From: Vicinamibacteria bacterium
Lineage (GTDB): Bacteria > Acidobacteriota > Vicinamibacteria > Fen-336
NCBI GenBank assembly: GCA_041481445.1
Contig: JBGPBV010000016.1
Coordinates: 12,432 to 76,431 of the forward strand
DNA: 64,000 nucleotides
Direction: 5' to 3'
Shown here in pieces: positions 22,607 to 47,107 of this stretch; the stretch's first letter is position 1; each line of letters begins with the position of its first letter. The translations under genes were made by a program, and so were the position numbers. Below the pieces are notes generated by a model, which did not search any database, had not been told where the DNA came from, and saw only the letters and a list, made by a program, of their open reading frames with translations.

Positions 22607-23216
22607 TCAGCGCCGTCCCTCGATCGCCGCCGCGAACCTTTCCGCGACCCAGACATTCCCCGCCTGCGTGAGGTGGATCCCGTCCACGAAGTGCTCCCGG
22701 GGAATCCCGGAAAGCTCCACCAGCGACAGGCCGCGCTCCGCGGCAATGCGCCGGTAGGCCTTGTTGAGCTGCTCGATCATGCCGTTCATGCTCCAGGGCT
22801 CCAAGGGAGCGCCGAAGCCGGTCTTGCCGGGGAGGGTGGCGAGGTAGACGAACCGGCCCGCGACGCGACATTGATCGAGTACGGCCTCGCAGGCGGCCAG
22901 GGCCTGCTCCAGCGAGCGGTCCTGCTTCGCGTCGTTGGTTCCACCCCAGAGGCAGACCTCCTTGGCCTCGGGGACGGAAAGAAGCTCGTGATAGTTGCGC
23001 CGCCAGATCTCGGCCCAGCCGTCCCGCGGCACCCCGAGGTTCACCGCCGCCCAGGTCTGGCCGTGCTTCTGGGAGAGCAGCCGCCCGAGGTACAGGGGAT
23101 AGCTCATGCCGTCCGGGTCGCGCGATCCGAACGTCAGGGAGTCGCCCTGACAGGCGAGGAGTCCGTAGACACTGGCGCGCCTTTTTTGCGTCTTCCCCGA
23201 GGCCGAGCCCTCCATC
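22607..23216 (-). CDS. SGNH/GDSL-family hydrolase
   Basis: SGNH block I (ACQGDSLT), block III (WGGTND) and block V (DGIHLT). ATG at 23216. Confidence 0.75.
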
Positions 23217-23747
23217 AGGCCGGTGTCACGGGACACTGAGCCGGATTCCTCCAGAGTCAATCTCCACCTCCGATCCTGATGCGACCAGTTGACCGCGATC
23301 CACGCGGCCACTGTGCAATCGCTGTACCCGCTCGCGATTCGGTCGGACCAGGAGGCCTCGCCGCATCCCCGCCGCGATCCTTCTCGCCGTGAAGCTGGTC
23401 GGGTGCGGCGAGCGACGTCATCGCGGGCCATGCGACCGGCTTCGTATGGCTGCGCACCCGTGGCCGCGGCCGACCGCCTGCGGCGCCGCCCGGGAGCGAT
23501 CGGCTGCCCAACCGCCGTATAGGAGCTCCCGAACAGATCCCGAACGGCGCCTATCTCCACACGATCATCGACGGGGCCCGCCGCCGAGTCCGCGGACCGG
23601 CCGTCAGCAAGTCCGCCACAGCGAGGCCATCGCGCCACAGCCGGGCCGGCTCGGTTGGCCGGTGGACGTCAGTGTCCCCCAAGCCTGGCGCGGTCGGTTT
23701 CGACGCCTTCCGCACGGAAGCGAACCACGGCGACGATGGCGAGGACG

Positions 23748-24017
23748 TCAGTACTCGGCAAACGCGTCGTCCGGGTAGCAGTAGAGCCACCGCTCTCCCG
23801 GCTCCGCGGAGGCGATCACCGGATGTCGGCTGGCCCCCGCGTGCTTGCTGGCGTGCCGGTTGGGCGAGTCGTCGCAGCATCGCGTGGTGCCGCATTCCTG
23901 GCAGGTCCGGAGGTGTACCCACTGCGCGCCCGTCTTCACGCACTCCTCGCACTCCCGGCGCTTCGCGTGCTTCACCGCCGTCACGGCTTGGATGTGATCA
24001 CAGGCTCCGTCCGGCAT
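23748..24017 (-). CDS. UBP-type zinc-finger domain protein
   Basis: 89 aa with C/H-rich zf-UBP pattern (CDHI...CEEC...HLRTCQECGTTRCC...H). Confidence 0.65.
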   Translation of the reverse strand: MPDGACDHIQAVTAVKHAKRRECEECVKTGAQWVHLRTCQECGTTRCCDDSPNRHASKHAGASRHPVIASAEPGERWLYCYPDDAFAEY

Positions 24018-24049
24018 GGCGCTTTCCTCACTCCTTCAGCCAGCCGTCC

Positions 24050-24841
24050 TTACTGCAAAGTCCGGACACCGGCGGCGGCGCTTTCGATCAGTGACGCGAC
24101 GGCCCGGGGCTGCGACACGAAGATGGCGTGGCTGCCCTTGACCTCGACGACCGTCGAACCCGCGCGCCGGGACATGGCGCGCTGCGCGTCGGGTGGGATC
24201 ATCTTGTCGTCGGTGGCGACCAGGTACCAGCTGGGCTTGGTCTTCCACGCCGGCTCGCTGATGCTGCCGCTCAGCGCGGCCACGCCCCACGGAACCTGGG
24301 AGTCGGCCATGAACGCCGCCCTTTCCACGGCCACGTCCGCCGCGAAGGAGGCGGGGAACTTCGCCTTGTCGAGGAATAGATAGCCGTCCTGCGGCGGCAG
24401 GATCGGCGGCACGGGGGCGCCCGGCACCGGGTCCTTGATGAGGGTGGACACCGACTCGCCCTTGTCGGGCGCGAAGGCAGCGATGTACACGAGCCCCGCA
24501 ATCTTTGGATCGTTCCCGGCTTCGGTAATCACCACTCCGCCGTACGAGTGGCCGACGAGAACCACGGGGCCGTTCTGCGCGGCAACAATGCGCCTGGTTG
24601 CGGCGACATCGTCGGCGAGCGATGTCGTCGGATTCTGAACGATGGCGACGGTGTAGCCGTCCTTCTTCAGGGCGTTGTAGACGGCCTCCCAACCGGAGCC
24701 GTCTACGAAGCCCCCGTGCACGAGAACGACGGTCCTCACGCTCGTCGGATGGCTCGTCTGTGCCATCAGAACCTCGGCCGAACCCAACAGCAACGCAACG
24801 CCGAACACAGCTGCCGCAAACGTTCCTTGCCTCATGACCAA
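24050..24841 (-). CDS. secreted alpha/beta hydrolase
   Basis: Signal peptide. HGG oxyanion motif (VVLVHGGF) and nucleophile elbow GHSYGG. Confidence 0.8.
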   Translation of the reverse strand: MVMRQGTFAAAVFGVALLLGSAEVLMAQTSHPTSVRTVVLVHGGFVDGSGWEAVYNALKKDGYTVAIVQNPTTSLADDVAATRRIVAAQNGPVVLVGHSYGGVVITEAGNDPKIAGLVYIAAFAPDKGESVSTLIKDPVPGAPVPPILPPQDGYLFLDKAKFPASFAADVAVERAAFMADSQVPWGVAALSGSISEPAWKTKPSWYLVATDDKMIPPDAQRAMSRRAGSTVVEVKGSHAIFVSQPRAVASLIESAAAGVRTLQ

Positions 24842-24889
24842 GTCTCCTTTTCAATTCCTCGCGGCCGCGAACGTCGGCGACCAACGGCA

Positions 24890-24995
24890 AAGTACGCTTC
24901 GGCGCGCCCTCGCACATCACGACATCGAAGGCTTTTGCGCTACCCCGCGAGCGGAGTCTCGCGATACCCAATTCGAGGGAGTCAGGAGACTCGTC
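24890..24995. repeat. intergenic cassette F (shares the 30-mer CATCACGRCATCGARGGCTTTTGCSCTA with G, plus GCGATACCCAAT)
   Basis: Compared with 30335..30430. Lies upstream of alpha/beta hydrolase 24050..24841. Confidence 0.5.
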
Positions 24996-25060
24996 AAGGC
25001 TCTCACCGCGAAGGCACGTGTCCTCGCCACGTTCTCGTGCGCGGAGGCGAGGGAAGCCGG

Positions 25061-25690
25061 CTAGAGCTGGATGATTCCCCGCCGTATCGCGATCGCGACC
25101 GCTTCCGTCCGGTCGCTGGCCCCGAGCTTTTCCATGACGTGCTTGACGTGAACCTTGACCGTCTCTTCGGAGATGAACAGGTGCTCCGCGATATCACGGT
25201 TCCGGTTCCCTCCCGCCACCTGGCGCAGCACCTCCACTTCACGCGCAGTGAGGGTCTCGTCGCTGAGATGCTCGGCCAGGTGAGCCACGATCTCGGGAGG
25301 GATCCGCTTCTTTCCCGCGTGGACCTGGCGGATCCCGTCGAGCAGCTCCTTGGGGGGCATGCTCTTCAGGAGGTACCCGCGCGCTCCCGCCTCCAGGGCG
25401 CGCTGGATCTCGACGTCGCCCTCGAAGGTGGTGAGGATGACGATGCGGGCGTCCGGGAACTCCGAGCGGATCGCCGCCATGGCGTCGATCCCGTTCATGT
25501 CCGGGAGGCGAAGGTCCATCAGCGTGATGTCTGGCCGGTGCTGGCGGAACCGCTCGAGGCCGTCCCGGCCGTTGCTGGCCTCCGCAACCAGCTCCATGTC
25601 GAGCTGGCTCCTGATCATCGCGGAGATCCCCTCGCGCAGGAGCGGATGGTCGTCGACACTGAGGACGCGGATGGGGGCAGTTGCGCTCAT
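25061..25690 (-). CDS. NarL/LuxR-family two-component response regulator
   Basis: ATG at 25690. REC domain (VLSVDDHPLLREG...DITLMDLRLPDM). LuxR HTH (LTAREVEVLRQVAGG.NRDIAEHLFISEETVKVHV). Confidence 0.85.
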   Translation of the reverse strand: MSATAPIRVLSVDDHPLLREGISAMIRSQLDMELVAEASNGRDGLERFRQHRPDITLMDLRLPDMNGIDAMAAIRSEFPDARIVILTTFEGDVEIQRALEAGARGYLLKSMPPKELLDGIRQVHAGKKRIPPEIVAHLAEHLSDETLTAREVEVLRQVAGGNRNRDIAEHLFISEETVKVHVKHVMEKLGASDRTEAVAIAIRRGIIQL

Positions 25691-26526
25691 GGACCTGTCT
25701 CCCGTCGGCTCGATGTGCTGGATTGCTCGTGGAAGGCCGCTGCTTCCGGAACGGAGAGCTCGACCTCCCTGCGGAGGCGCTCGTCGTCCCCGCATCGGAG
25801 ACCGTGGAGCACGCGACGGGCTTCATCGGTCGCGCGTCCCATGACGGCGAGGACCTGTTCGAGACGCGTGCGGTCCGGCGAGCCCTCGGGCAGGTGATTC
25901 ACGGCCAGATGGAGCTGCATCGACACGCTCAGGAATCCCTGGAGGAGCGTATCGTACAGCTCCTGCGCGATTCTCGCGCGCTCCGCCAGCCGTTCGTCCG
26001 AGCGCGCGTCGAGCTCCCGCGCGAGCTGCCGCAAGCGATAGCGGTGGAGACCGACCGCTCCCAGCACCGCCACCGCGAGGCAAGCGACCCAGAACCACGG
26101 GGCCTTCCACCAAGGCGGCGCGCCGTCCCTGACGGTGAGAGCGGCCACCCCGCCTCCGATCCCGGGGAGGGACGGCGTTCGCGCGAGGGGACGGTACTCC
26201 GCATCGACGAGGAGGGCAGCATACTCCGTTCCGAGGTGCGTCGAGCTCCTCCAGGTGGAGTCGGCCTGGATGGCCGTGAAGGGCTGGTCCGCGAACGGCT
26301 GCACGTACCAGTCTCCGCTCCGGGCATAGAGGACGATCCGTTGCCCGCTGCGCGCGCCCGACACCCGGCCCGCGATGGCTCCGAGGCGGACGGTGCCGCC
26401 CTCGTCCGCCGGGGGCACCTGGCTCAACTTGACGACGGGTCCGGCGGCCATCGCCGGCGGACGCGTCCTCGCAAGGAGGATGACGGCGCAGAGGAGGGCG
26501 ATTGTGCTCGCCCTCGGCCACGTCAT
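25687..26526 (-). CDS. membrane pseudo-sensor: periplasmic domain plus TM plus HisKA_3-like dimerisation domain with His->Tyr, and no ATPase domain
   Basis: ATG at 26526 overlaps the upstream TGA (ATGA). The signal/TM, periplasmic domain and second TM are followed by ERLAERARIAQELYD, where the codon is TAC (Y) at the conserved His. The ORF then ends 50 aa later without a HATPase_c domain. Its stop overlaps the response-regulator ATG. Confidence 0.65.
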   Translation of the reverse strand: MTWPRASTIALLCAVILLARTRPPAMAAGPVVKLSQVPPADEGGTVRLGAIAGRVSGARSGQRIVLYARSGDWYVQPFADQPFTAIQADSTWRSSTHLGTEYAALLVDAEYRPLARTPSLPGIGGGVAALTVRDGAPPWWKAPWFWVACLAVAVLGAVGLHRYRLRQLARELDARSDERLAERARIAQELYDTLLQGFLSVSMQLHLAVNHLPEGSPDRTRLEQVLAVMGRATDEARRVLHGLRCGDDERLRREVELSVPEAAAFHEQSSTSSRRETGP

Positions 26527-28208
26527 TCCTTCAGCACCTGGTGCACGAGGGCGATGGCCGTCGATCCCTCCCCCACCGCCGACGCCACCCGCTTCTGGTT
26601 GCCGCTGCGCACGTCGCCCACGGCGAAGACGCCGGGAAGGCTCGTCTCCAGGAGGTGCGGGGCCCTCGTCAGCGGCCACTCCGCCGTCCGCAGGTCGTCC
26701 GGCGAGAGATCGGGGCCCGTCTTGATGAATCCCTTGTCGTCGCGCGTGACGCAGTCCTCGAGCCAGCGCGTGGTGGGCTCCGCGCCCGTCATCACGAACA
26801 CGTGCCCGACGTCGTTTCGCTCCATCACCATCGTCTGGTTGTCGCGCCAGAGCACGGCCTCCAGACGATCGCCGCCCTCGAGGCTCACGATCTCCGCGCG
26901 TGTCCGGAGCTCGATGTTGGGGCTCTGCTCGATGCGGCGGATCAGGTAGCGCGACATGGTCTCCGCCAGCCCGGCCCCGCGCACGAGCATGGACACGCGC
27001 CGTACGGACGTGGAGAGGAACACGGCGGCCTGCCCCGCCGAGTTCCCGCCCCCCACGACCACCACCTCTTCTCCCTGGCAGAGCTGGGCTTCCATGGGGG
27101 TCGCGCCGTAATACACGCCCGCGCCCTCGAAGCGGGCCAGGTCGGCCACGGCCAGCTTCCGATAGGCAGCGCCGGTGGCGATCACGATGGTCCGCGCGGG
27201 CACCGTCGTCCCGTCCTCCAGCTCGATCGAGTAGGGCTTGCGCGTGCAACGAAGGGCCCGCGCCCCCTTGGCCACCGTCACCTGGGCCCCGAACTTCTGG
27301 GCCTGGCTGTACGCGCGCCCGGCCAGCTCCGCGCCCGAGATGCCCATGGGGAAGCCGAGGTAGTTCTCGATCCGAGAGCTCGAGCCCGCTTGCCCTCCGG
27401 GGGCCGTGGATTCGAGGACGAGGACGTCGAGACCTTCGGACGCGCCGTACACGGCCGCGGCCAGACCCGCCGGCCCCGCCCCCACGATGACGGTGTCGCG
27501 CACGTGGGCGTGGTCGATGGGCGCGTTGAGGCCGAGGCAGTCCGCGATCTGCTGGTTGGTCGGGTTGCGGAGGACGGTGCGGCCGCCGCAGATGAGCACG
27601 GGCACGTCCCCGACGCCGATGTGGAAGCGATCGAGGAACTCCTGCGCCTCCGCGTCCTGCTCGAGGTCGATGTACGAGATCGGATGCCCGTTGCGGGTGA
27701 GGAATTCCTTGATGCGGAGGGTGCCCGCGGAATGGCGCGAGCCCAGGAGGACCACGTCCGCGGAGCCGCGGGCGATCAGCTCCAGCCGGCGCAGGATGAA
27801 GGCCCGCATGAGAAGGTCGCTCAGCTCGCTGTCCGTCTGCACCAGCGCCATGAGCTGGGGGCGGTCCACCTCGATGACTTCCCCGCTCTCGCGCGCGCGC
27901 GTCCTGGCCAGACCGCGCCGGCCGGAGAGGATGGCCATCTCCCCCGTGAACGACCCGACTCCGTGCACCACGATGATCTCTTCGGCGTCGCCGACGCCCC
28001 TCACCGTCTCGACGCTGCCGGCGGTGATCACGAAGATCCGCGCGCTGTCGCCCTGCCCGAGAAGGATCTCGCCCGCCTCCACCCGCCGCACCCGCCCGTG
28101 CGCGGCCACCCGCGCGATCTGCGCCGGGGTCAGCCGGGGAAAGACGTGCTCGAGGGGAGAGTTGAGCCGGAGCGTCGTGGTGGCGCCGGCGGTCAGGGCG
28201 CTGGTCAT
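26523..28208 (-). CDS. cyclic-nucleotide-binding domain protein fused to degenerate glutaredoxin-like and thioredoxin-reductase-like (FAD/NAD(P)-binding) domains
   Basis: cNMP-binding beta-roll (GEILLGQGD...FTGEMAIL). Glutaredoxin-like segment with GSRHSAG in place of CPYC. TrxR-like fold (IVGAGPAGLAAAVY, VVVVGGGNSAG, GVFAVGD) where GATPMEAQLC replaces the CATC redox disulfide. Confidence 0.8.
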   Translation of the reverse strand: MTSALTAGATTTLRLNSPLEHVFPRLTPAQIARVAAHGRVRRVEAGEILLGQGDSARIFVITAGSVETVRGVGDAEEIIVVHGVGSFTGEMAILSGRRGLARTRARESGEVIEVDRPQLMALVQTDSELSDLLMRAFILRRLELIARGSADVVLLGSRHSAGTLRIKEFLTRNGHPISYIDLEQDAEAQEFLDRFHIGVGDVPVLICGGRTVLRNPTNQQIADCLGLNAPIDHAHVRDTVIVGAGPAGLAAAVYGASEGLDVLVLESTAPGGQAGSSSRIENYLGFPMGISGAELAGRAYSQAQKFGAQVTVAKGARALRCTRKPYSIELEDGTTVPARTIVIATGAAYRKLAVADLARFEGAGVYYGATPMEAQLCQGEEVVVVGGGNSAGQAAVFLSTSVRRVSMLVRGAGLAETMSRYLIRRIEQSPNIELRTRAEIVSLEGGDRLEAVLWRDNQTMVMERNDVGHVFVMTGAEPTTRWLEDCVTRDDKGFIKTGPDLSPDDLRTAEWPLTRAPHLLETSLPGVFAVGDVRSGNQKRVASAVGEGSTAIALVHQVLKE

Positions 28209-29131
28209 GGAGCGGGTGACGCGGAGGCGTCGTCGAGGAATGCCGTCAGCTCCGGGATCACCTTGGCCGGCGCCTCGTCGATGAGCCAGTGTCCGGACCC
28301 CGGAACGATGACGCCCTTGACGTTGGTCGCGGCCAGGCGTGTCTGGTCGATGAGCCCCTGTCCGGAGGCCTTCTCACCGGTCAGGACGAGGACCGGCATC
28401 GTGAGCGGCGTGCGAGCGAGTTGCGCGAAGTCCTGGGCGTCCTTCTCGAAGTTGCGGAAGTACTCGAAGCCGGCGCGCACGCCGCCGGGCTGGGCGAAGG
28501 CGGCAGCGTAGAGCCGGCGGTCGGCCTCCGAAACGGAATGGTTGCGGTCCGCGGCGAAGTCGTTCCAGAAGTGCTCGAGGTACGTCCGCTCGCGGCCCGT
28601 GACCAGGGCCAGCGGAGTCTCGCCGTAGAAGTGGAAATGCCAGAGGTCGCGCATCAGCCAGACGCTCTTCCAGTCCCCGATTCCGGGAAGGAAGGCGTCC
28701 ATCAACACGAGGCGGTCGGTGCCCGCCGGGAACTGCGCCGCGTACCCGTAGGCGACCATGAGGCCGATGTCGTGGCCGACCACGCTCACCCGATCGAAGC
28801 CAAGCGAGCGCGTGAGCTCGTGGACGTCCACGGCCATGCTCTTCTTGTCGTATCCGCCTTCCGGCTTGGCGGAGTCGCCGGCTCCCCTCAGGTCCGGCAC
28901 GATCACGGTGTGCCGCTGGGCCAGGAGCGGCATGATCGGCCGCCACATGAGTCCCGTCTGGGCGAACCCGTGCAGGAGGACCACGGCCGGGCCCTTGCCG
29001 CCGATCGAGTAGTGCAGCCGGACCCCGTTCACGTCCGCGAACCGCTCCGAGAATCCGGCGGTGGGCGCCGCCTTGGCGGCCGGCGCCGGTGCGGACGCGA
29101 GGAGGACGGCGACGGCCAGGCTCATGAGCAT
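28205..29131 (-). CDS. secreted alpha/beta hydrolase (epoxide-hydrolase / haloalkane-dehalogenase-like)
   Basis: Signal peptide. LLHGF and GHDIGLMVAYGYA nucleophile motif. The stop overlaps the downstream ATG (ATGA). Confidence 0.8.
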   Translation of the reverse strand: MLMSLAVAVLLASAPAPAAKAAPTAGFSERFADVNGVRLHYSIGGKGPAVVLLHGFAQTGLMWRPIMPLLAQRHTVIVPDLRGAGDSAKPEGGYDKKSMAVDVHELTRSLGFDRVSVVGHDIGLMVAYGYAAQFPAGTDRLVLMDAFLPGIGDWKSVWLMRDLWHFHFYGETPLALVTGRERTYLEHFWNDFAADRNHSVSEADRRLYAAAFAQPGGVRAGFEYFRNFEKDAQDFAQLARTPLTMPVLVLTGEKASGQGLIDQTRLAATNVKGVIVPGSGHWLIDEAPAKVIPELTAFLDDASASPAP

Positions 29132-29288
29132 CTTGTGGCCCTCTCACGGCACCGCAGGCTGCGGGTGCAGGCAGGAAGCGTAGCGCCCCCACCGCCCGAA
29201 ATCGTCCCCTCATCCAGGGGTTGTGGGGTACCACGATGGATCCATGGGGGACTACCACCATCGTGGTACCTCGAGGTTTCCGAGGCGG

Positions 29289-30122
29289 CTATGACTTGAG
29301 GAACGCCAGCAGGTCGGCGTTGATGGTGTCGGCCTCGGTCGTGGGCATGCCGTGCGGAAAGCCCTTGTAGGTTTTCAGCGTGCCGTTCCTCAGCAACTTT
29401 GCCGACAGTGGTGCCGAATCGGCATAGGGCACGATCTGGTCGTCATCGCCATGCATCACCAGGACGGGCACGGTGATCTTCTTCAGGTCTTCGGTGAAGT
29501 CCGTCTGGGAGAAGGCGACGATGCCGTCGTAGTGCGCCTTTGCGCCTCCCATCATGCCCTGGCGCCACCAATTCCAGATCACGCCCGGAGAGGGTTTCAC
29601 TCCAGGCCGGTTGTAACCGTAGAACGGTCCAGCCGGCAGATCGTAATAGAACTGGGCTCGGCTGGCGGCGAGCTGTGCCTGAAGCCCGTCGAACACGTCC
29701 TTGGGCAGCCCGCCGGGATTGGCCGGCGTCTTGACCATCAGCGGCGGCACCGCGCTGATGATCACCGCTTTTGCCACCCGGCTTTCGCCGTGGCGGGCCA
29801 GGTAGTGCACCACTTCGCCGCCGCCGGTCGAGTGGCCGACGTGCACTGCCCCCTTGAGGTCGAGATGTGCGGTCAGCGCCGCCAAGTCGTCGGCGTAATG
29901 ATCCATGTCATGCCCGCCACCGGTCTGGCTGGAGCGGCCATGGCCGCGCCGGTCATGGGCGATGACGCGATAGCCGTGCGCGAGGAAGAACAGCATCTGC
30001 GCGTCCCAATCATCCGCGCTCAGCGGCCAGCCGTGGCTGAAGACGACGGGCTGCCCCTTGCCCCAGTCCTTGTAGTAGATCTGCGTGCCGTCCGTGGTCG
30101 TGATCGTCGACACGTCGTTCAT
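29289..30122 (-). CDS. alpha/beta hydrolase of the non-heme haloperoxidase/esterase family
   Basis: ATG at 30122 ([21 protein letters not shown]). VFSHGWPLS and GHSTGGGEV motifs. Confidence 0.8.
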
Positions 30123-30126
30123 GGCG

Positions 30127-30297
30127 TCATTCCTCCTCGCTGCACGCGGCAGCCGTCTTGACCAGCGCTTTGGCACCGTCCGAACGGCTCACGTAGTTCA
30201 CGACGACGGCAATCCCGTCCGCGGCCAGGCGCTTGGCCACGGAGGAGCCGATGCCCCCGGACGCGCCGGTGACGATTGCGACTCTCGCATCACTCAT
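30127..30297 (-). pseudogene. N-terminal fragment of a short-chain dehydrogenase/reductase (SDR)
   Basis: MSDARVAIVTGASGGIGSSVAKRLAADGIAVVVNY... Rossmann segment runs into a stop after about 57 codons, 4 nt before the next gene start. Confidence 0.5.
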
Positions 30298-30334
30298 GAG
30301 ACCGCGTCCTCCTGAGTGATCAAGGTAGCGATCC

Positions 30335-30430
30335 GGTGCGCCAGGGCGCATCACGGCATCGAGGGCTTTTGCCCTAACACCCTGGATGGAACGCGGGATT
30401 ACTCGATGGTGGTACCGCGCTCGTCTAGGA
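30335..30430. repeat. intergenic cassette G (paralog of F) upstream of the SDR fragment and haloperoxidase-like hydrolase
   Basis: Shares a 30-mer at about 27/30 identity with F, followed by GGATGGAACG and GATGGTGGTACC. Confidence 0.5.
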
Positions 30431-30685
30431 CTTGGTCGCGGAGGCCGGGACAGGATCTGCGGGCTTCGTACCGCTCCGACGCGCAGGCGCCCACACGGAC
30501 GCGCCGACGGTCGCGAGCAGCACGACGCCGATCACGACGATCGACTGGAGGGGGCTGATGTGGATCCAGTCGCTGGCCAGCATCTTCCCGGCCGTGAAGA
30601 GCAGGACGACGGCCAGGCACTGGCGCAGGAAGCGCAGGCGGGTCAGGGTGTCGGCGAGAACGAAGTAGATCGAACGCAGTCCGCG

Positions 30686-39201: not shown

Positions 39202-39627
39202 TCAGTCTTCGCGCGCCGCCTCCCGCCGCGCCGGGATCGTGATCTCGCGGCGCCCGAACAGCGCGGCGTCGACCGAGATCGCCCCCGGCCCGAGCAGAGC
39301 GATGGCCGCCGCCACGACGACCGGAAGGACGCCCGCCACGCCGGGGCCGAACGTGCTCGGGGTGGGCGACGGCAGCCAGGAAAGGAAGACGCCCGCGCTG
39401 GCCAGGGCGGCCAGCGCGCCCGCCACCGGGGTCAGGAGCCCGACCAGGAGGAAGGCTCCGGTGAGGGCCGAAACCACGCCGATGGCCCACGTCCCTCGCG
39501 CGGAAGCGACCGCGCCGCCGAGGCAGGCCGCGCCGTGGGAGACGAGCACGACGGCCACGCCGAATCGCAACAACAGCAGGCCGATCCCTGGCGATCCGTT
39601 CGGGAACGTCGAGAACAACCTCTGCAA
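39202..39627 (-). CDS. DoxX-family membrane protein
   Basis: 141 aa, 4 TM, DoxX-like. Confidence 0.65.
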   Translation of the reverse strand: MQRLFSTFPNGSPGIGLLLLRFGVAVVLVSHGAACLGGAVASARGTWAIGVVSALTGAFLLVGLLTPVAGALAALASAGVFLSWLPSPTPSTFGPGVAGVLPVVVAAAIALLGPGAISVDAALFGRREITIPARREAARED

Positions 39628-39682
39628 TCGGCTCTCCTCGCCGGCGCCGTCGCCAGCCCGTGCGCGGAGAGGCTACCGAAAG

Positions 39683-42600
39683 TCAGTGCCCCGCGGAATC
39701 CCCAGATCGGGGTATTTGGCGCGTCCACGATCGGGTCAGGGCCCTCAGCCAGCCGGCTGGACCGCGTGAGGACGCGGCCGGAAAGGCCACGTGCCCGGGA
39801 ACCGTGAGCTCCACTTCGGTACCGGCTCCGGGGCGGCTCCACAGCCGCAACCGGCCGCCGATCCTTTCCGACCGCTCGCGCATCCCCGAGAGTCCCCAGT
39901 GGCCGTCGCGCCCCGCGCGGAGGACCTCGGCGTCGATCCCCTTCCCGTCGTCGCGCACGAGGACACGGAGCCGGCGGGCCTCGCGTTCGACTCCGACCTC
40001 GATACGGGTCGCCCCCGAGTGCCGGAACGCGTTGATGAGCGCTTCCCGTCCGATGCGGTAGACCTCGTCGCGGATCATCGGATGCAGGCGGCGGGGCGGC
40101 CCTCCGCCGATCACGCGGAAGGCAACGTCGTCCCTCACTCCGAGCTCGTCCCGGATGCGCGAGAACGACTGCTCGAGATCGTCGAGGCTGCTCTGGGACG
40201 AGCGGAGGCCCCGCACGGCGTTCCGGCCCTCTTCGATGACCCGCTTGATCAGCTCGAGGACCCCGGCCAGGCTTCCCCTCTCGGGCGAGCCTGGCGGCAT
40301 GCGGTCCACCGCCAGGTGGAGCTGCATCGAAGCGCTCAGGAACCCCTGCAGCAGCGTGTCGTGCAGCTCCTGCGCGATGCGCGTCCGCTCGGCCAGCCGC
40401 TCCTCGAACCGGACGTTCAACTGGCGCGTCAAGCGATGGAGCCGCATCCGGTAGAGGCCGAGCAGGATCAGCGCGCCGGCCAGCGCGCTCGTCAAGCGAA
40501 ACCATCGCGTCTGCCAGACCACGGGTTCGATGTCGAATCCGAGCGCGGCCTCGGCGCCGTTCCAGAAGCCCTCGCTGTTCGAGGCCATGACTCGGAACTG
40601 GTAGGCGCCGGGCGCGAGGTTGGTGTACACGGCCTCCCGCGCGGAGAAGGGCTCGCTCCAGCCGCGATCGAATCCGTCGAGCCGATAGCGGAATCGGATC
40701 TCGTCCGGGGCGCCCAGGCTGACTCCGGAATAGCCGAGGGTGACGCGCCGCGATCCCGCGGGTATCGCGTGCGTCCCCTCCAGATCGATGAGGTTGCCGT
40801 CGGCGGACAGGGCCTCGATGCGGGCCACGACGGGAGCCGCGCTGCTGGTGGCGCGCACGGGATCGACGACGGAGAGGCCGCGGCTCATCGAGAACCAGAT
40901 CCGGCCGAACAGGTCGGCCACCACCGACCGGTGCCGGCGGGCGACCTCCGTGCTGTACAGGCCATCGGAGGGGCCGTACTCCGCCACTTCCGCGCGTCCC
41001 GGGGAGGGGTCGAGGAGCTGGTCACGCCGGGCCCGCAGCACCCGCGTCGAGGTGGCGATCCAGAGCCATCCCTGGCGGTCCTCCGCCAGCCCGAAGATCG
41101 GCTCGTGGAGCGACCCTGGCACGCCGCCCGGCACCCGGATCCCTTCCGGACCGAGCCGCGCGAGCCCGTCACCGGTCCCTATCCAGAGGCCGCCCGCGGA
41201 GTCCTCCAGGAGGCAGCTCACGTCGTCGGACGGCAATCCGTCGCGGGTCGTGAAATATCGCCAGTGACCCTTCGAGAGCGCGCCGAGGCCGCTCGGCGTG
41301 GCGAACCACGTCGTGCCGTCGGCGGTGTCCACGATCGACACGACGGTGTTGGAGACGAGGCCACTCTCGGAGTCGTAGGTCGTGAACCGGCCATCCCGGA
41401 AGCGGCTGGCGCCGCTCTCGAGCGTTCCTGCCCAGACGGTGCCGTCGCGGCTCTCGTGGACGGCGTACACCGTGTCGTCGACGAGGCCGTCCGCGGTCCG
41501 GTACGTCCGAGCCACGACGGCGCCGCCCCTGGTGACCAGGCGCGTCAGCCCGCCCGCTTTCCGGCCGACCCAGAGACCGTCCTTGCCGCCCGCGAGCGAG
41601 TAGACCACGTCCCCCGGTAGCCCGTCCGCGGTGACCTTGCCCACCCGCCCGTTGTGGAGCCAGAAGAGCCCGCCGCCCAGGGGCGCGAACCACGTGCGTC
41701 CCTCGGCGTCGACGTGGATCGGCCCGCTGCTCTCCGACGGCAGCCCTTCGGCGGGCCCGTAGGTGGTGAAGCTGGTGTCGCGGAGGCGCTCGAGGCCACG
41801 GGGAGTGCCGACCCACAGGCTCCCTTCGCGGTCTTCGAAGAGGGCGGTCACCGCGACACGGGCCGCCGGATCCTCGAAGCGGGAGACGCCGCGCGCGTTC
41901 ACGCGCAGCAGGCCCTCGGCGGTGCCGATCCAGACGTTCGACTCGCGATCCACCGTCATCGTCGACGCCACCACCCGTCGCAGACCAGGGGCGAGCCCGT
42001 CCGCGCTGATCCCGCTTCCGTTCCAGCGCACCATGCCTTTCGGCGTGGCCACCCACACGTCTCGGGCGCCCACGGCGAGCACGGCGCTGATGGTCCGATC
42101 GGGAAGTCCCTGCCTCACCGCGATGACCTGTCCCTGGACGGCACAGAAGAGGCCTTCGCCCTGCGTTCCCATCCAGATGCGGCCGTCCCCCGCTTCCGTC
42201 ATCGAGGTCACGGGAGACCGCGCGGGCAGGGAGGCGCGTGGGGCGAGGCTCTCCACGCGCTCCCCACTCCAGCGCAGGGGGCCGTTCACGATGCCGGCCA
42301 TCATCATGGTGCCGTCGGGAGCGCGCGCCATCGCGGTGATCGCATCCTCCATCGTCTCCAGGGAGGGCACGCTCTCGAACCGGCGGTCGCGATAGCGCAG
42401 GACCCGGGGCCCGCCGAGCCTGACCCACATGGTGCCGCGCCCGTCCACGGTCAGCCCCAGGACCTGGGTGATCGACGGCGACGCGGAGCCCGGCTCCGGA
42501 AAGCGGCGGAAGGCCGAGCCGTCGAAGCGGTACAGTCCCCGGTCGGTTCCGAGCCAGAGGTATCCGTCCGCGGTCTGGCTGATGGCCTGGACGGTTCCCC

Positions 42601-42754
42601 CCGGGAATCCGCGGTCGGCGCCCCAGCGTTCCCGCACGTACTGGGACATCGTCCGGTCGGGGTCGATGGCCTGGGCGGTGCCGGCGAGGCACGTCACCGC
42701 CACCGCGGCCCAGAGCCCAACCCGTCGACGCGCCGCGCCACCTCCGAGCCTCAC
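39683..42754 (-). CDS. sensor histidine kinase with periplasmic two-component-regulator beta-propeller (Y_Y_Y-type) domain, HisKA_3 and HATPase_c
   Basis: GTG start at 42754 overlaps the upstream TGA (GTGA). Signal peptide and repeated propeller blades (DG.LW.GT..GL.R). TM followed by ERLAERTRIAQELHDTLLQG (H-box), then N-box, G1 and G2 (DDGKGID, GLSGMRER). Confidence 0.8.
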   Translation of the reverse strand: MRLGGGAARRRVGLWAAVAVTCLAGTAQAIDPDRTMSQYVRERWGADRGFPGGTVQAISQTADGYLWLGTDRGLYRFDGSAFRRFPEPGSASPSITQVLGLTVDGRGTMWVRLGGPRVLRYRDRRFESVPSLETMEDAITAMARAPDGTMMMAGIVNGPLRWSGERVESLAPRASLPARSPVTSMTEAGDGRIWMGTQGEGLFCAVQGQVIAVRQGLPDRTISAVLAVGARDVWVATPKGMVRWNGSGISADGLAPGLRRVVASTMTVDRESNVWIGTAEGLLRVNARGVSRFEDPAARVAVTALFEDREGSLWVGTPRGLERLRDTSFTTYGPAEGLPSESSGPIHVDAEGRTWFAPLGGGLFWLHNGRVGKVTADGLPGDVVYSLAGGKDGLWVGRKAGGLTRLVTRGGAVVARTYRTADGLVDDTVYAVHESRDGTVWAGTLESGASRFRDGRFTTYDSESGLVSNTVVSIVDTADGTTWFATPSGLGALSKGHWRYFTTRDGLPSDDVSCLLEDSAGGLWIGTGDGLARLGPEGIRVPGGVPGSLHEPIFGLAEDRQGWLWIATSTRVLRARRDQLLDPSPGRAEVAEYGPSDGLYSTEVARRHRSVVADLFGRIWFSMSRGLSVVDPVRATSSAAPVVARIEALSADGNLIDLEGTHAIPAGSRRVTLGYSGVSLGAPDEIRFRYRLDGFDRGWSEPFSAREAVYTNLAPGAYQFRVMASNSEGFWNGAEAALGFDIEPVVWQTRWFRLTSALAGALILLGLYRMRLHRLTRQLNVRFEERLAERTRIAQELHDTLLQGFLSASMQLHLAVDRMPPGSPERGSLAGVLELIKRVIEEGRNAVRGLRSSQSSLDDLEQSFSRIRDELGVRDDVAFRVIGGGPPRRLHPMIRDEVYRIGREALINAFRHSGATRIEVGVEREARRLRVLVRDDGKGIDAEVLRAGRDGHWGLSGMRERSERIGGRLRLWSRPGAGTEVELTVPGHVAFPAASSRGPAGWLRALTRSWTRQIPRSGDSAGH

Positions 42755-43800
42755 GGGAGGTATTCGAACTTCTCGATCACGACCTCCGTCCCGCGCTCCA
42801 GGGCCCGCGCGCTCCGGCGGAAGACATAGAGGTTCATGCGCACCGTCTCGTTGCCCGGGGAGGGCACGCCCGACGTGAACGTGTGCTCGGCGACCGCCGG
42901 CGCGCGGTTCTCGGGGCCAGCCCCGCGGACGGTCCGGGCCATGAGGCGGCCGGGCTCCCAGCGGAGCCCGTGGGTCAGGACGCCCGGAGGCGCCACGAAG
43001 GGCCAGACGTTCGCGGCGACGTAATAGGGCTGGACCACGTACTGCGCGTTCTTCGCCGCCGGCTCGCCCCACCGGCTGACCTCGATGTCCATCTCGCGAT
43101 GGTTCTCGCTCGCGGCCGGTCCGTCCCAGGTGAACAGGGTCAGTACCACCGCCGGCTCCAGTTGCGACACGTCGCGCACGACGAACCGGTACGAGCCATA
43201 CCCGAGCCGGCGCGTGAGGCGCACTTCTGCGCAGGTCCAGCGCGGCGCCTCTCCCCCGATGCGGAGGTGCATCGCTCCGCTTCCGTCCGTCCAGGCGTTG
43301 GCGGGATCGTAGTCGTTGGTGCCGCCCCGGTCGCTGGGGGCGGCGCGGGCGATCCATTCGTATCCGCTGAACTGGATCGTGTGATGTTGGGCGCGCGCCG
43401 AGGGGTCACCCGGTGCGATCGTGACGGCCACGACGCCGCCGCCGGCAGGCGGCAACGTCTCCGTGGAGAGCGGCGGACGATATCCGGCATCGACGAGGAG
43501 GGCCGCGTACTCCGTCCCCAGGTGGGTGGAGCTCGTCCAGGTCGAGTCGGCACGGACCTCCGTGAACGGCTGCCGGGCCTCCGGCTGGACCCACCACACC
43601 CCGCTCTTGGCGAACAACACGATGCGCTGCCCGCGCTGCGCGCCGACCACGCGGCCTTCGATCACGTCGAGCGTGTCCGGTCCGCCCTTGTCCGCGGGCG
43701 GGATCCTCGTGAATTGGATCGAGGGCCCACCGTCGCCCTGGCGGCCGGCGCAGCCGGTCAGGAGGAGCCACGGTACGACCAGCAGGAGCCTGAGCCTCAC
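42751..43800 (-). CDS. lipoprotein: N-terminal domain of unknown function plus C-terminal GH16-like (concanavalin-type glycoside hydrolase) domain
   Basis: Lipobox LLLTGC. The N-domain is paralogous to the pseudo-sensor's periplasmic domain. The C-terminal domain has a GH16-type E-x-D-x-E catalytic motif (REMDIEVSRWG). Confidence 0.6.
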   Translation of the reverse strand: MRLRLLLVVPWLLLTGCAGRQGDGGPSIQFTRIPPADKGGPDTLDVIEGRVVGAQRGQRIVLFAKSGVWWVQPEARQPFTEVRADSTWTSSTHLGTEYAALLVDAGYRPPLSTETLPPAGGGVVAVTIAPGDPSARAQHHTIQFSGYEWIARAAPSDRGGTNDYDPANAWTDGSGAMHLRIGGEAPRWTCAEVRLTRRLGYGSYRFVVRDVSQLEPAVVLTLFTWDGPAASENHREMDIEVSRWGEPAAKNAQYVVQPYYVAANVWPFVAPPGVLTHGLRWEPGRLMARTVRGAGPENRAPAVAEHTFTSGVPSPGNETVRMNLYVFRRSARALERGTEVVIEKFEYLP

Positions 43801-43996
43801 GGGAAGTGAAGGGTCGATGGAAACTCGAAGCCGCTACAGTACCCCTTCAGCCGTGGGTTTCCAAGACTCTCGCCTCGTCGTGCCTCGCCCGCCGCGCCTC
43901 GCTACCAAGGTATCTCCCGGACATTCAGAGCGACCTCTTCTAGGATTAGCGGACGAACGTCGACGTGAAGGAGCGGCGGGCACGGAGGGCAAGGCG

Positions 43997-44869
43997 GTGA
44001 CGTCCAACAGGGTCAGCAACGATGGCATCCCCGATCACATGCCGCCGTTGCTGCGGCGGCGCCTCGAGCGTGCGGAGGCCTGGGCCGGCAACGAGAAAAC
44101 GGCGGCTCTCGTCGAGATGCCAGGTCTGGTGGCATGGGTGCATTCCGTGCCCAGCGACTCCAGTACGGGTGGCGGCGACGTCCACTACCTGTCCGTCTGC
44201 CCCAGCGGGATCGTCTCCCGGATCGCCCTTGCCGACGTGAGCGGGCACGGACAGGCCGTGATGAGCGTCGGTGAGAAGCTGCGTGAGCTCATGCTCCGAT
44301 ACCTCACGGCGCTGGAACAGGTCGGGCTCATGCGGGATCTGAGTCGAGCGGTCCGGGAAGAACTGGACGGCGTGCACTACGCCACGATGGTAGCGGTCGG
44401 ATGGCATGGCCGCCGCCGCCTGCTCGTCGTGACGAATGCGGGGCACCCCCCGCCGTGTTGGTACCGCGCGGCCCTTGGTGAATGGAGTTGGATTGGAGCG
44501 CGACACGCCAGCGAGCGAGGGCGGACGGTCGGCGTTCCCCTCGGCCTGCTCGCCGACAGCAGCTACGACCGCGCGGTACTCAAGCCCGAGATAGGCGACC
44601 TGGTGGTGCTGTACACGGACGGGGTCTTTGAAGCCTCGAACGAGGCGGGAGACGAGCTGGGTCGCGACGGGCTGATGAGGATCGCGCGCGGGTTGGACGC
44701 GAGCTCGGCCGAGGCTTTCGGAAGCCAGTTGGCGGCCGCGCTGCGCCGCTTCCGCGGACGCGCGGAACCCACCGACGATCAGACGATCATCGTCCTGCAG
44801 AGGGTGGCTCCCGAGACGTCGCCAAGTGGATCCCGGCCTGACCCACGGAAACGGGCCGCGCGGAAATAG
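43997..44869 (+). CDS. PP2C-family (SpoIIE-like) serine/threonine phosphatase, stand-alone
   Basis: A GGAGGG RBS precedes a GTG at 43997; an alternative ATG is at 44039. SpoIIE-like metal-binding motifs ALADVSGHG and YTDGVFEA. Confidence 0.7.
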   Translation: MTSNRVSNDGIPDHMPPLLRRRLERAEAWAGNEKTAALVEMPGLVAWVHSVPSDSSTGGGDVHYLSVCPSGIVSRIALADVSGHGQAVMSVGEKLRELMLRYLTALEQVGLMRDLSRAVREELDGVHYATMVAVGWHGRRRLLVVTNAGHPPPCWYRAALGEWSWIGARHASERGRTVGVPLGLLADSSYDRAVLKPEIGDLVVLYTDGVFEASNEAGDELGRDGLMRIARGLDASSAEAFGSQLAAALRRFRGRAEPTDDQTIIVLQRVAPETSPSGSRPDPRKRAARK

Positions 44870-45026
44870 CTCCCCGCCCCTCCCCCTAACGAGGTATGCG
44901 CAGGCCCCTCCATTGCGTGGGGCGGAAACGACCCGATTGCGTGATGCGCGCGCGGCGGCCGGCCCGCTAGCATCCGGCGTTCGCTGCGCAACCGGACCGC
45001 GCAGGGTTCGAGAGGAGGCAAAGAGC

Positions 45027-45698
45027 ATGACGGCCAGACCCATCGTGTTCGTCGTCGACGCCGACGTCTCCGTGCGTGAGTCCCTGGAGCTGCTGATCGA
45101 CCGCAGTGGCTGGCAGCCGAGGACGTTCGCGTCGGCGCCGGAGTTCCTGGCTCAGGCGCGTGTCCCCGCTCCGAGCTGCATGGTGCTCGACGTCGCTCTC
45201 CCGGGCCTCAGCGGCCTCCACCTGCAGAAGCTCGTCGCCGACCGGACCGACATGCCGATCATCTTCCTCACCGGCTCCGGCGACGTGGCCATGACCGTCC
45301 AGGCCATGAAGGCGGGCGCCGTGGAGTTCCTGACCAAGCCGTTCCGTCCCGACGTGCTCGTTGGCGCCATCCGCGAAGCGCTCGAGCGCAGCTGGCAGGC
45401 ACTGGCGCGGGAGACGGCGCTGAAGTCTCTCCGTGAGTCCTACGCGTCCCTCAGCCGCCGCGAACGGGAAGTGATGGCCCTGGTCGTCGCCGGGCTCCTG
45501 AACAAGCAGGTCGGGGGCGAGCTCGGCATCAGCGAGATCACCGTCAAGGCGCACCGCGGCCAGGTGATGCGGAAGATGCAGGCCGACTCCCTCGCCGCCC
45601 TGGTGAAGATGGCGGCGAGACTCGACCTTCCCGCCGCCTGGCCGGCGGAGCCGGTTCGCCCGGTCGCGGTGACCGCCTATGGCCAGTTGTCCCTGTGA
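45027..45698 (+). CDS. FixJ/LuxR-family response regulator
   Basis: A GAGGAGG RBS precedes the ATG at 45027. REC domain (IVFVVDAD...CMVLDVALPGLSG). LuxR-type HTH (SRREREVMALVVAGLLNKQVGGELGISEITVKAHR). Confidence 0.85.
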   Translation: MTARPIVFVVDADVSVRESLELLIDRSGWQPRTFASAPEFLAQARVPAPSCMVLDVALPGLSGLHLQKLVADRTDMPIIFLTGSGDVAMTVQAMKAGAVEFLTKPFRPDVLVGAIREALERSWQALARETALKSLRESYASLSRREREVMALVVAGLLNKQVGGELGISEITVKAHRGQVMRKMQADSLAALVKMAARLDLPAAWPAEPVRPVAVTAYGQLSL

Positions 45699-47081: not shown

Positions 47082-47107
47082 GACGCCTCCTCCAGGACGC
47101 GAAGGGC

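Follow-up and report, generated by a model that had tools for sequence, protein, structure and literature searches.

A Tyr-type pseudo-sensor without an ATPase domain, coupled to a NarL-type response regulator and linked to an uncharacterised flavoprotein in Acidobacteria

What can a sensor histidine kinase (HK) contribute to a signalling pathway when both its phospho-acceptor histidine and its ATP-binding domain are gone? The question is raised by a locus in a 64,000-nucleotide stretch of DNA (hereafter the window; contig JBGPBV010000016.1, assembly GCA_041481445.1) from a Vicinamibacteria bacterium (Acidobacteriota). Within 25061-29131, the list of open reading frames (ORFs) of the window contains four consecutive minus-strand ORFs, which encode an alpha/beta hydrolase (gene 1, 28205-29131, 308 aa), a flavoprotein (gene 2, 26523-28208, 561 aa), a pseudo-histidine kinase (gene 3, 25687-26526, 279 aa) and a response regulator (RR; gene 4, 25061-25690, 209 aa). 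An earlier annotation, made from the nucleotide sequence without database searches (the sequence-only reading), had described these genes as an overlapping operon; on direct reading, the operon is real and the coordinates given for it are exact. The same annotation called the third product a pseudo-sensor, and here the case turned out to be stronger than claimed, with a His to Tyr replacement compounded by deletion of the CA (ATPase) domain. With Tyr191 in the place of the acceptor His and an in-frame deletion of the ATP-binding domain, the sensor is predicted to be unable to autophosphorylate. The reading that we favour, with confidence somewhat better than even, is that of an autoregulated operon in which this DHp-only pseudo-sensor would serve as a phosphatase of, or a brake on, an RR phosphorylated by another donor, with the hydrolase and the flavoprotein as outputs.

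The Tyr-type sensor and the loss of its ATPase domain

Gene 3 (25687-26526, minus strand), characterized by Pfam, alignment and an AlphaFold2 (AF2) model, comprises a signal/transmembrane helix, a periplasmic beta-sandwich (residues ~31-134), a transmembrane helix, a DHp hairpin (143-245) and a disordered tail of 30 aa. The model has a pLDDT of 83, with values above 90 for the periplasmic domain and the hairpin. The only Pfam domain is HisKA_3 (PF07730, E = 5.8e-12, residues 182-244), with no match to HATPase_c; a PAS domain is likewise absent, and the homologues come from Acidobacteria. The H-box reads ELYDTLLQ, with Tyr191 at the site of the phospho-acceptor His. Tyrosine occupies this position in all ~46 nearest homologues, the full-length ones included, and more distant homologues have ELHDTLLQ (hereafter Tyr-type and His-type); among the 120 best homologue matches, 53 are Tyr-type. 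The neighbourhood of the H-box is invariant across the Tyr clade and, in the clade alignments, so are D192 and Q196 of the DxxxQ phosphatase motif, the role of which is predicted from the sequence. In NarX, DxxxQ is needed for phosphatase activity, and the motif is conserved in HisKA_3 (PMC3510030). A literature search on HisKA_3 kinases that lack the His retrieved no close precedent. Two loci (L109 and L129) and one protein (P0119) have Gln at the phospho-acceptor site (EIQDTLLQ); by this motif, they are predicted to be further, independent kinase-dead variants within the sensor family.

Helix 2 of the DHp domain also sets the two types apart. In the alignment of P0001-P0120, a Cys in this region is present in 37 of the 53 Tyr-type sensors and in none of the 66 His-type sensors, mostly at one of two positions (RCVL or GLRC) that share a helical face because they are seven residues apart; in the window, this residue is Cys245 (codon 25791-25793). 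It may, speculatively, serve in redox or partner contact, hinting at thiol chemistry with the flavoprotein.

The RR encoded by gene 4 (25061-25690, minus strand), assigned by Pfam, NCBIfam and an alignment with VraR, is a 209-aa protein of the NarL/VraR type with a GerE helix-turn-helix domain (Response_reg, 3e-28, and GerE, 3e-21, in Pfam; NarL, 3.4e-52, in NCBIfam; VraR, PDB 5hev, E = 4e-46). The sequence-only reading correctly named it a NarL-type RR: both domains are present and all catalytic residues (D13, D14, D59, T87 and K109) are intact.

The closest homologues of gene 3 (81-86% identity) are 396-aa kinases with HATPase_c. In the protein alignment, gene 3 matches its orthologues up to residue 251, skips ~117 residues that make up the entire CA domain, and aligns again over the final 25; the DNA alignment with the full-length orthologues L001 and L003 reveals a clean in-frame deletion of 351 nucleotides that leaves the ATGA junction with the RR gene intact. 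The scar, CGCAGG, occupies codons 252-253 (25768-25773, minus strand) and was mapped by DNA and protein alignment. The source is a metagenome-derived contig, which would be in keeping with a misassembly that created both the deletion and the 279-aa ORF. We find this scarcely credible: the same allele is found in four records that were assembled separately (the contig of the window, 77,261 nt long, GCA_041499675.1, JGI 3300052990 and Logan SRR29604914) that are 99.96% identical, with 3 differences over 6.8 kb, and one of these alleles differs by an amino acid substitution in gene 3; furthermore, the deletion is in frame, with no collapse-prone repeat at its breakpoints.

The CA domain has been lost independently elsewhere too, with distinct breakpoints: the proteins of the L005/L094/P0017 group end soon after the DHp domain, those of the L093/P0024 group end earlier, and L095 has a frameshift inside the CA domain. 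A metagenome scan with the alignment of the Tyr clade yielded 80 further loci, for a deduplicated set of 19 Tyr-type and 54 His-type loci. The sensor and DHp regions of the CA-less forms show dN/dS values of 0.24-0.33 at dS of 0.16-0.46, indistinguishable from those of full-length Tyr-type genes (the NG86 method that was used is crude at the GC content of third codon positions, GC3, of ~0.9 that is typical here); for the window allele itself, with only 3 differences among near-identical assemblies, the dN/dS test has no power. At matched sensor divergence, the CA domain of the Tyr clade is somewhat less well conserved than that of the His clade (0.62 vs 0.73 and 0.70 vs 0.81), and the full-length Tyr-type proteins retain the N, G1 and G2 boxes. 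The CA domain is dispensable, yet not useless in every lineage.

These data bear on the possibility of plain decay, whereby gene 3 would be a remnant that is open only for 3' translational coupling, or ribosome loading, of the RR gene, and the RR would be an orphan that receives its phosphate from acetyl phosphate or from another kinase. Losses of the His and of the CA domain are classic inactivating lesions, the latter occurred several times, once via a frameshift (L095), and the 30-aa tail past the scar, with a pLDDT below 50, is disordered and lower in GC3. Against this background, none of the 19 distinct Tyr-type loci has a disrupted sensor or DHp region, the dN/dS of the CA-less forms stays at 0.24-0.33 up to a dS of 0.46, the deletion in the window is exactly in frame, and the invariant H-box surroundings and the confidently modelled periplasmic domain are not what a remnant would be expected to display, so that we consider decay quite unlikely.

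The retained N, G1 and G2 ATP-binding boxes could also suggest a relay through tyrosine, in which the CA domain of the full-length members would phosphorylate Tyr191 and the phosphate would signal onward, the window allele being a loss-of-function form. This is very improbable. At least two lineages maintain CA-less forms under purifying selection, and phosphotyrosine is not known to pass its phosphate to the aspartate of a receiver. DivL of Caulobacter crescentus was originally reported to be a tyrosine kinase (reference 17 in PMC4211667), a precedent for such a relay, but later work showed that it functions without kinase activity (PMC4211667).

The flavoprotein and its linkage to the Tyr-type sensor

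Gene 2 (26523-28208, minus strand) encodes a 561-aa protein that, according to Pfam, NCBIfam, alignments with PDB entries and within the family, and an AF2 model, combines a cNMP-binding-like domain (residues ~41-126), a thioredoxin/glutaredoxin (Trx/Grx) fold (~150-228) and a module similar to thioredoxin reductase (TrxR) that binds FAD and NAD(P)H (238-555). The Pfam matches, namely cNMP_binding (PF00027, E = 8e-13), Pyr_redox_2 and, weakly, Glutaredoxin, agree with the cNMP/Grx-like/TrxR-like architecture of the sequence-only reading. In the phosphate-binding cassette, FTGE and the Arg are conserved; the residue after this Arg varies (T/A/I/V), and the next one is Arg instead of Ala. The protein reaches neither the cut-off of TIGR01292 (210.3 bits vs 343.45) nor that of AhpF (149.6 bits vs 502.9); AhpF is the closest fold and the best sequence matches are TrxRs at ~1e-38. 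In the AF2 model, which is of moderate quality (pLDDT 72), residues 152-225 adopt the b-a-b-a-b-b-a order of the Trx fold.

Neither of the redox-active motifs expected from these similarities is present. Alignment to solved TrxRs shows that CATC is replaced with GATPMEAQLC, and this replacement is found in all 92 family sequences from the fetched loci with an extractable segment; the CxxC position of the Trx fold reads GSRHSAGT, without Cys. The loss of the Trx-fold Cys could be thought specific to the HK-linked clade; this idea was rejected, Ser being the majority state family-wide. Because both CxxC motifs are absent, the gene 2 product is predicted not to be a disulfide reductase. To call it redox-dead, as in the sequence-only reading, is nevertheless an overstatement: GAGPAG (243-248, FAD) and GGGNSAGQAA (386-395, NAD(P)H) are invariant in 40 sequences and, across the 40 close and ~90 wider members, these motifs and Cys377 are invariant or nearly so, with CxxC never present. 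The description of the protein as a scaffold, also from the sequence-only reading, is conjectural.

The presence of this flavoprotein gene next to the sensor correlates with the Tyr substitution. It adjoins the sensor gene in all 16 Tyr-type loci with upstream sequence (13 loci plus the short contigs L089, L094 and L095) and in none of the 38 His-type loci with at least 600 nucleotides upstream. The linked gene is either co-directional, at a gap of 0-53 nucleotides, or divergent, at 200-445 nucleotides; the sole known exception is the P0014 locus, which consists of genes for a hydrolase, a Tyr-type HK and an RR, with no flavoprotein gene between the first two. The Tyr-type transmitters are monophyletic and so are the linked flavoproteins, which shows that the linkage goes back to a single ancient event and was retained afterwards, also through an inversion; a separate capture of the flavoprotein gene in the divergent loci was rejected given the monophyly of the linked proteins.

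The flavoprotein family itself is far more widespread: GTDB species genomes contain no fewer than 600 of its loci, and its hosts range from Acidobacteriota through Sphingomonas to Nitrososphaeraceae; we found no characterised member of a cNMP-TrxR fusion family in the searchable literature. In 80 GTDB species genomes, no HK, RR or hydrolase gene neighbours the flavoprotein gene. The sequence-only reading had staked the operon on the recurrence of its gene order in relatives; the order is indeed present in close ones but, because it is missing from 80/80 species-level loci of the wider flavoprotein family, it is not a property of that family.

The linkage is one of the arguments for reverse signalling in the manner of DivL, in which a noncatalytic DHp domain would dock the RR or its phosphorylated form (RR~P) and pass its state to a partner, most plausibly the flavoprotein; in a variant, the flavoprotein, responding through its cNMP or redox modules, would dock at the former place of the CA domain and control access of the RR. 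The His to Tyr change is the exact substitution of DivL, which binds DivK~P without kinase or phosphatase activity (PMC4211667). The co-occurrence of the Tyr substitution and the flavoprotein gene, the persistence of the linkage after inversion to the divergent orientation (L002, L099), the restriction of the helix-2 Cys to Tyr-type sensors and the repeated loss of the CA domain all fit such a scheme. It is harder to reconcile with the invariant DxxxQ motif, which a pure docking protein would not need, with the P0014 locus, and with the 16 of 53 Tyr-type proteins that lack the helix-2 Cys. Moreover, because most members of the flavoprotein family are encoded away from any HK or RR gene, the family would seem to have an autonomous function. 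On balance, we hold reverse signalling to be rather unlikely.

A bolder version combines reverse signalling with a separate kinase. A Tyr-type, DHp-only adaptor would have arisen once, with the capture of the flavoprotein gene; the flavoprotein would replace the CA domain and dock to the DHp domain, possibly through the helix-2 Cys and Cys377, and its cNMP or redox state would gate the dephosphorylation or sequestration of an RR phosphorylated by a separate kinase. We regard this as a long shot; if true, a flavoprotein that substitutes for a CA domain would make a three-protein signalling module without a described counterpart.

Across the 80 GTDB loci, the commonest neighbour of the flavoprotein gene encodes a small zf-UBP protein (18/80; directly 3' in 13, usually 8-58 nucleotides downstream). 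The window has such a gene as well (89 aa, Pfam; 23748-24017, minus strand), 1.7 kb past the stop codon of the sensor gene, beyond the RR gene and a third hydrolase gene, ABH2. The zf-UBP protein may be an ancestral partner of the flavoprotein, now parted from it by inserted genes. PADLOC identified no known defence system, only weak matches (E ~1e-4) to the cNMP-binding parts of Pycsar proteins.

Three further observations were made in passing. On the 1.5-kb contig L089 (1-642), a perfect copy of the palindrome described below lies 228 nucleotides 5' of a sequence that corresponds to no more than the C-terminal 132 residues of the flavoprotein, so that either a truncated gene or a chimeric contig is at hand. 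In L112 (5328-6900), the flavoprotein gene beside the Tyr-type sensor matches in two pieces and frames, with a cNMP part that is 50% identical, which may reflect a frameshift or a diverging N-terminal domain. The window also encodes a class-I pyridine nucleotide-disulfide oxidoreductase with Pyr_redox_2 and Pyr_redox_dim domains (45717-47255, minus strand), unrelated to gene 2, that adjoins a gene for a metallo-beta-lactamase-fold protein.

Probable transcription unit, candidate operator and candidate phosphodonor

The three junctions of the operon, between the hydrolase and flavoprotein genes (28205-28208), the flavoprotein and pseudo-sensor genes (26523-26526) and the pseudo-sensor and RR genes (25687-25690), are all 4-nucleotide ATGA stop/start overlaps on the minus strand by direct sequence reading, as had been reported. 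The start codons are backed by homologues that begin at the same residues, and the 279-aa ORF is taken from such an ATG; the GC3 of the four genes, 0.84-0.93, is usual for coding sequence at the ~70% GC of the window. A crude direct scan of the window for (A/G)TGA junctions flanked on either side by an open, high-GC3 frame of 100 codons or more returned 13 candidates, some of them spurious, and counted two of the three operon junctions, the one at 25690 falling below the GC3 filter; this direct count was used after a GC3-based gene caller for the base rate of overlaps had been dropped as too crude. Because four-base overlaps are common in the window, the overlaps by themselves are ordinary operon anatomy; what goes beyond chance is their conservation.

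This conservation differs from junction to junction. The four-gene order is the same in L003/L004, L087/L088 and L005/L006, and the overlaps are shared except for gaps in L005 and L088; in L088, a short gap separates the hydrolase and flavoprotein genes. The junction from flavoprotein to sensor is a gap of 17-53 nucleotides in L005, L093, L097, L100, L101 and L112, and the flavoprotein gene is divergently oriented in L002/L090/L106 and L099. By contrast, the sensor/RR junction, which was compared across loci, is ATGA or GTGA in every Tyr-type locus that covers it and ATGA in many His-type loci; taken over all relatives, nearly all have ATGA there. The obligate co-translation of all four genes that the overlaps had been taken to imply is thus an overstatement: given the gaps, the divergent orientations and the P0014 locus without the flavoprotein gene, only the sensor-RR overlap is general. 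The Cif-like hydrolase gene in the 5' position is confined to the sub-clade of the window, L088, L003 and L005.

A scan with the sigma-70 consensus, which says little for Acidobacteria, found no promoter at 23500-30600; the search for intrinsic terminators in the same region, of similarly limited value for Acidobacteria, returned a single site on the wrong strand, fewer than in shuffled sequences. The RNA fold of the 3' region of the RR gene is no better than those of shuffles, and the Rfam scan gave only a sub-threshold chance match, with no riboswitch or attenuator. The overlaps on one strand, the lack of a detected internal promoter or terminator and the order conserved in close relatives are the features expected of a coupled operon. 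Given the absence of consensus internal signals, the location of the only conserved operator candidate 5' of the first gene and the order kept in close relatives, the four genes look like a single transcription unit. The operon is itself ordinary; it is conserved in a narrow clade of soil Acidobacteria and probably self-regulated.

The operator candidate is a 7-2-7 inverted repeat, TACCACGATGGTGGTA, a perfect match located 137 nucleotides 5' of the hydrolase ATG (29253-29268, minus strand); 0.08 matches with up to 3 mismatches are expected per window. The palindrome is invariant in the aligned regions 5' of the hydrolase gene in four loci (the window, L088, L003 and L005). The upstream alignment contains an extra half-site, ATCGTGGTA, 16 nucleotides downstream of the palindrome (29229-29237, minus strand), and the invariant block CATCGTGGTA holds this half-site in all four regions. 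A weaker operator-like site with 3 mismatches, TTACTCGATGGTGGTA (30399-30414, plus strand), lies 5' of the neighbouring hydrolase gene ABH0; a similar weak site is found 5' of ABH0 in L003/L004. Among the His-type loci, the palindrome occurs within 400 nucleotides 5' of the HK gene in 27 of 40, and in 14 of these 27 the region is shared with a divergent ABH0-like gene; a variant precedes a gene for a DoxD-like protein of 141 aa after the RR gene in 21 of 26 related loci. In all 9 Tyr-type loci with a 3-kb flank, the palindrome is 5' of the first gene of the operon, hydrolase or flavoprotein; its presence directly 5' of the HK gene is limited to loci with a divergent flavoprotein gene. The 7-2-7 geometry with heptamer pairs starting with TACC is characteristic of sites of the NarL family. 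From the distribution of the palindrome across loci and this geometry, we infer that the RR autoregulates the operon via the candidate palindrome and that the genes for flavoprotein and hydrolase entered the interval between the operator and the sensor gene by insertion.

The first gene of the unit (28205-29131, minus strand; Pfam, PDB alignments) encodes a putatively secreted, Cif-like epoxide hydrolase of 308 aa with an N-terminal signal-like peptide and the Asp nucleophile in GHDIG. Its label as an alpha/beta hydrolase is confirmed by the Pfam match to Abhydrolase_1 (1.4e-25), and it aligns end to end with Cif-like 1 (7jqx, E = 3.5e-67) and with Cif (3kda, 2e-55). In the HMMER alignment with 7jqx, the Asp of GHDIG, the His of WHF and the C-terminal His coincide, and the ring-opening Tyr is shifted by one residue. 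ABH0 (29289-30122, minus strand; 277 aa, GHSTGG; Pfam) is kept 5' of the operon in L003 and L088; it probably belongs to the regulon of the operon, although it forms a unit of its own. ABH2 (24050-24841, minus strand; Pfam), with a signal peptide, lies 220 nucleotides 3' of the RR gene and is present in L167. All these genes belong to a hydrolase-rich stretch on one strand (22607-30122, minus), with ABH0, the Cif-like hydrolase, ABH2 and a GDSL lipase (22607-23638).

An intact paralogous kinase is encoded in the same window (39683-42754, minus strand; translation, Pfam). This 1023-aa protein has Reg_prop, Y_Y_Y, HisKA_3 (ELHDTLLQ) and HATPase_c domains, and helix 1 of its DHp domain differs from that of the pseudo-sensor in two of ~21 positions. 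It is 82% identical to the L002 kinase, whose gene is directly 3' of the Tyr-type HK/RR pair; the orthologous kinase module is found in this position in L002/L090, L100 and L101 and is 5' of the pair in the P0014 locus. Large Y_Y_Y kinases also flank His-type pairs of small HK and RR in L127, L145 and L155. The transmitter of the window kinase could be thought a recent duplicate of the Tyr-type sensor; this was rejected, the transmitter nesting among His-type kinases, the partners of which are orthologues of the operon RR. The Y_Y_Y kinase is the likely best candidate for the phosphodonor of the operon RR by these sequence relationships. Its gene is GTGA-coupled (42751-42754) to that of a 349-aa protein (42751-43800, minus strand; sequence reading, alignment), the N-terminal domain of which is 62% identical to the periplasmic sandwich of the pseudo-sensor, the rest being without a Pfam match. 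Together with a 141-aa DoxD-like membrane protein, they form a second coupled unit (39202-43800, minus strand), in the order 349-aa protein, kinase, DoxD-like protein. Divergent from this unit are the genes for a SpoIIE/PP2C phosphatase and a second NarL-type RR (43421-45695, plus strand); the latter (45024-45695) is 30% identical to the operon RR.

The autoregulated operon with a phosphatase or brake would work as follows. The RR would be phosphorylated by a separate donor, with the Y_Y_Y kinase (39683-42754) as the best candidate; the DHp-only pseudo-sensor, the amount of which relative to the RR would be fixed by the conserved ATGA coupling, would be a signal-controlled phosphatase of RR~P or a brake that binds the RR. 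The RR~P would bind the TACCAC-N4-GTGGTA palindrome and drive the operon, so that the epoxide hydrolase, the flavoprotein and the neighbouring ABH0 would be outputs. In evolutionary terms, the His to Tyr change would have arisen once, together with the capture of the flavoprotein gene between the operator and the sensor gene; the CA domain would have become dispensable thereafter and then have been lost repeatedly.

Several considerations weigh against this scheme. All of its functional steps are deduced from sequence. The N, G1 and G2 boxes are kept in full-length Tyr-type proteins, and the CA domain still matters in many lineages. The dN/dS near 0.3 indicates moderate constraint only, with NG86 crude at the prevailing GC3, and the deletion in the window is too recent for a selection test. 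The linkage statistic reflects one evolutionary event and not independent replicates. The Y_Y_Y kinase is encoded 14 kb away, and the divergent RR (45024-45695) could be its real partner. Finally, retention of DxxxQ is no proof of catalysis because DivL itself lacks phosphatase activity (PMC4211667).

Relation to known systems

Among histidine kinases, DivL has been singled out in the literature as the only one to carry Tyr at the phosphorylation site. The same His to Tyr change in helix 1 of the DHp domain, clade-wide in both cases, is found in DivL (Tyr550) and in gene 3. DivL is a His to Tyr pseudokinase that works without autokinase activity and keeps the surface for RR docking (PMC4211667), which gene 3 is predicted to keep as well. 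The two proteins are otherwise dissimilar: DivL is a cytoplasmic, multi-PAS, alpha-proteobacterial protein of the HisKA family that is essential for the cell cycle and keeps the CA fold, whereas gene 3 belongs to HisKA_3, has a periplasmic beta-sandwich, is coupled to a NarL-type RR and retains DxxxQ, with the CA domain lost in several lineages. Gene 3 is not a member of the DivL family, and the two are independent, convergent origins. If this is a second independent Tyr case, it involves another DHp family and another phylum, with a natural CA-deletion experiment that was run several times, and a strict linkage ties it to an uncharacterised flavoprotein family of very wide distribution (at least 600 loci, in bacteria and Thaumarchaeota). 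It would then offer a tractable system for studying the rewiring of two-component pathways by pseudokinases and a first way into the function of the flavoprotein family. It would also supply a predicted operator with its regulon (the Cif-like epoxide hydrolase, other hydrolases and the DoxD-like protein) in poorly studied soil bacteria. Should the sensor be merely the phosphatase partner of a second kinase, the result would be a tidy, unsurprising branched two-component system.

For such branching, NarX/NarQ-NarL is the natural comparison. The shared features are a HisKA_3 DHp domain with DxxxQ, an RR of the NarL family with a GerE helix-turn-helix, the 7-2-7 repeat starting with TACC (a candidate here) and two sensors per RR family, which in the present case have near-identical DHp helix 1 sequences. 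Unlike in NarX/NarQ, one of the sensors here is kinase-dead by sequence, and the sensor domains are unrelated to the P-box domain of NarX; the predicted targets are hydrolases and a flavoprotein rather than respiratory genes.

The putative output proteins likewise resemble known families only in part. Gene 2 shares with AhpF and low-Mr TrxR a Trx-fold domain N-terminal to the two-domain FAD/NAD(P)H module of the TrxR type; its family differs from both in lacking the two redox-active CxxC motifs, in the scores below the cut-offs and in the extra N-terminal cNMP-binding-like domain, and its lone conserved Cys377 is ~5 residues past the position of the second TrxR Cys. Gene 1 has the Asp nucleophile, the His of WHF, the C-terminal His and the N-terminal signal-like peptide of the Cif family and differs from it in the ring-opening Tyr, offset by one, and in gene context; in Pseudomonas aeruginosa, cif is controlled by a TetR-type regulator. 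Compared with all these systems, the anatomy of the operon is already familiar; what is new is a Tyr sensor, predicted to be kinase-dead and devoid of its CA domain, that is linked with a flavoprotein of an uncharacterised family.

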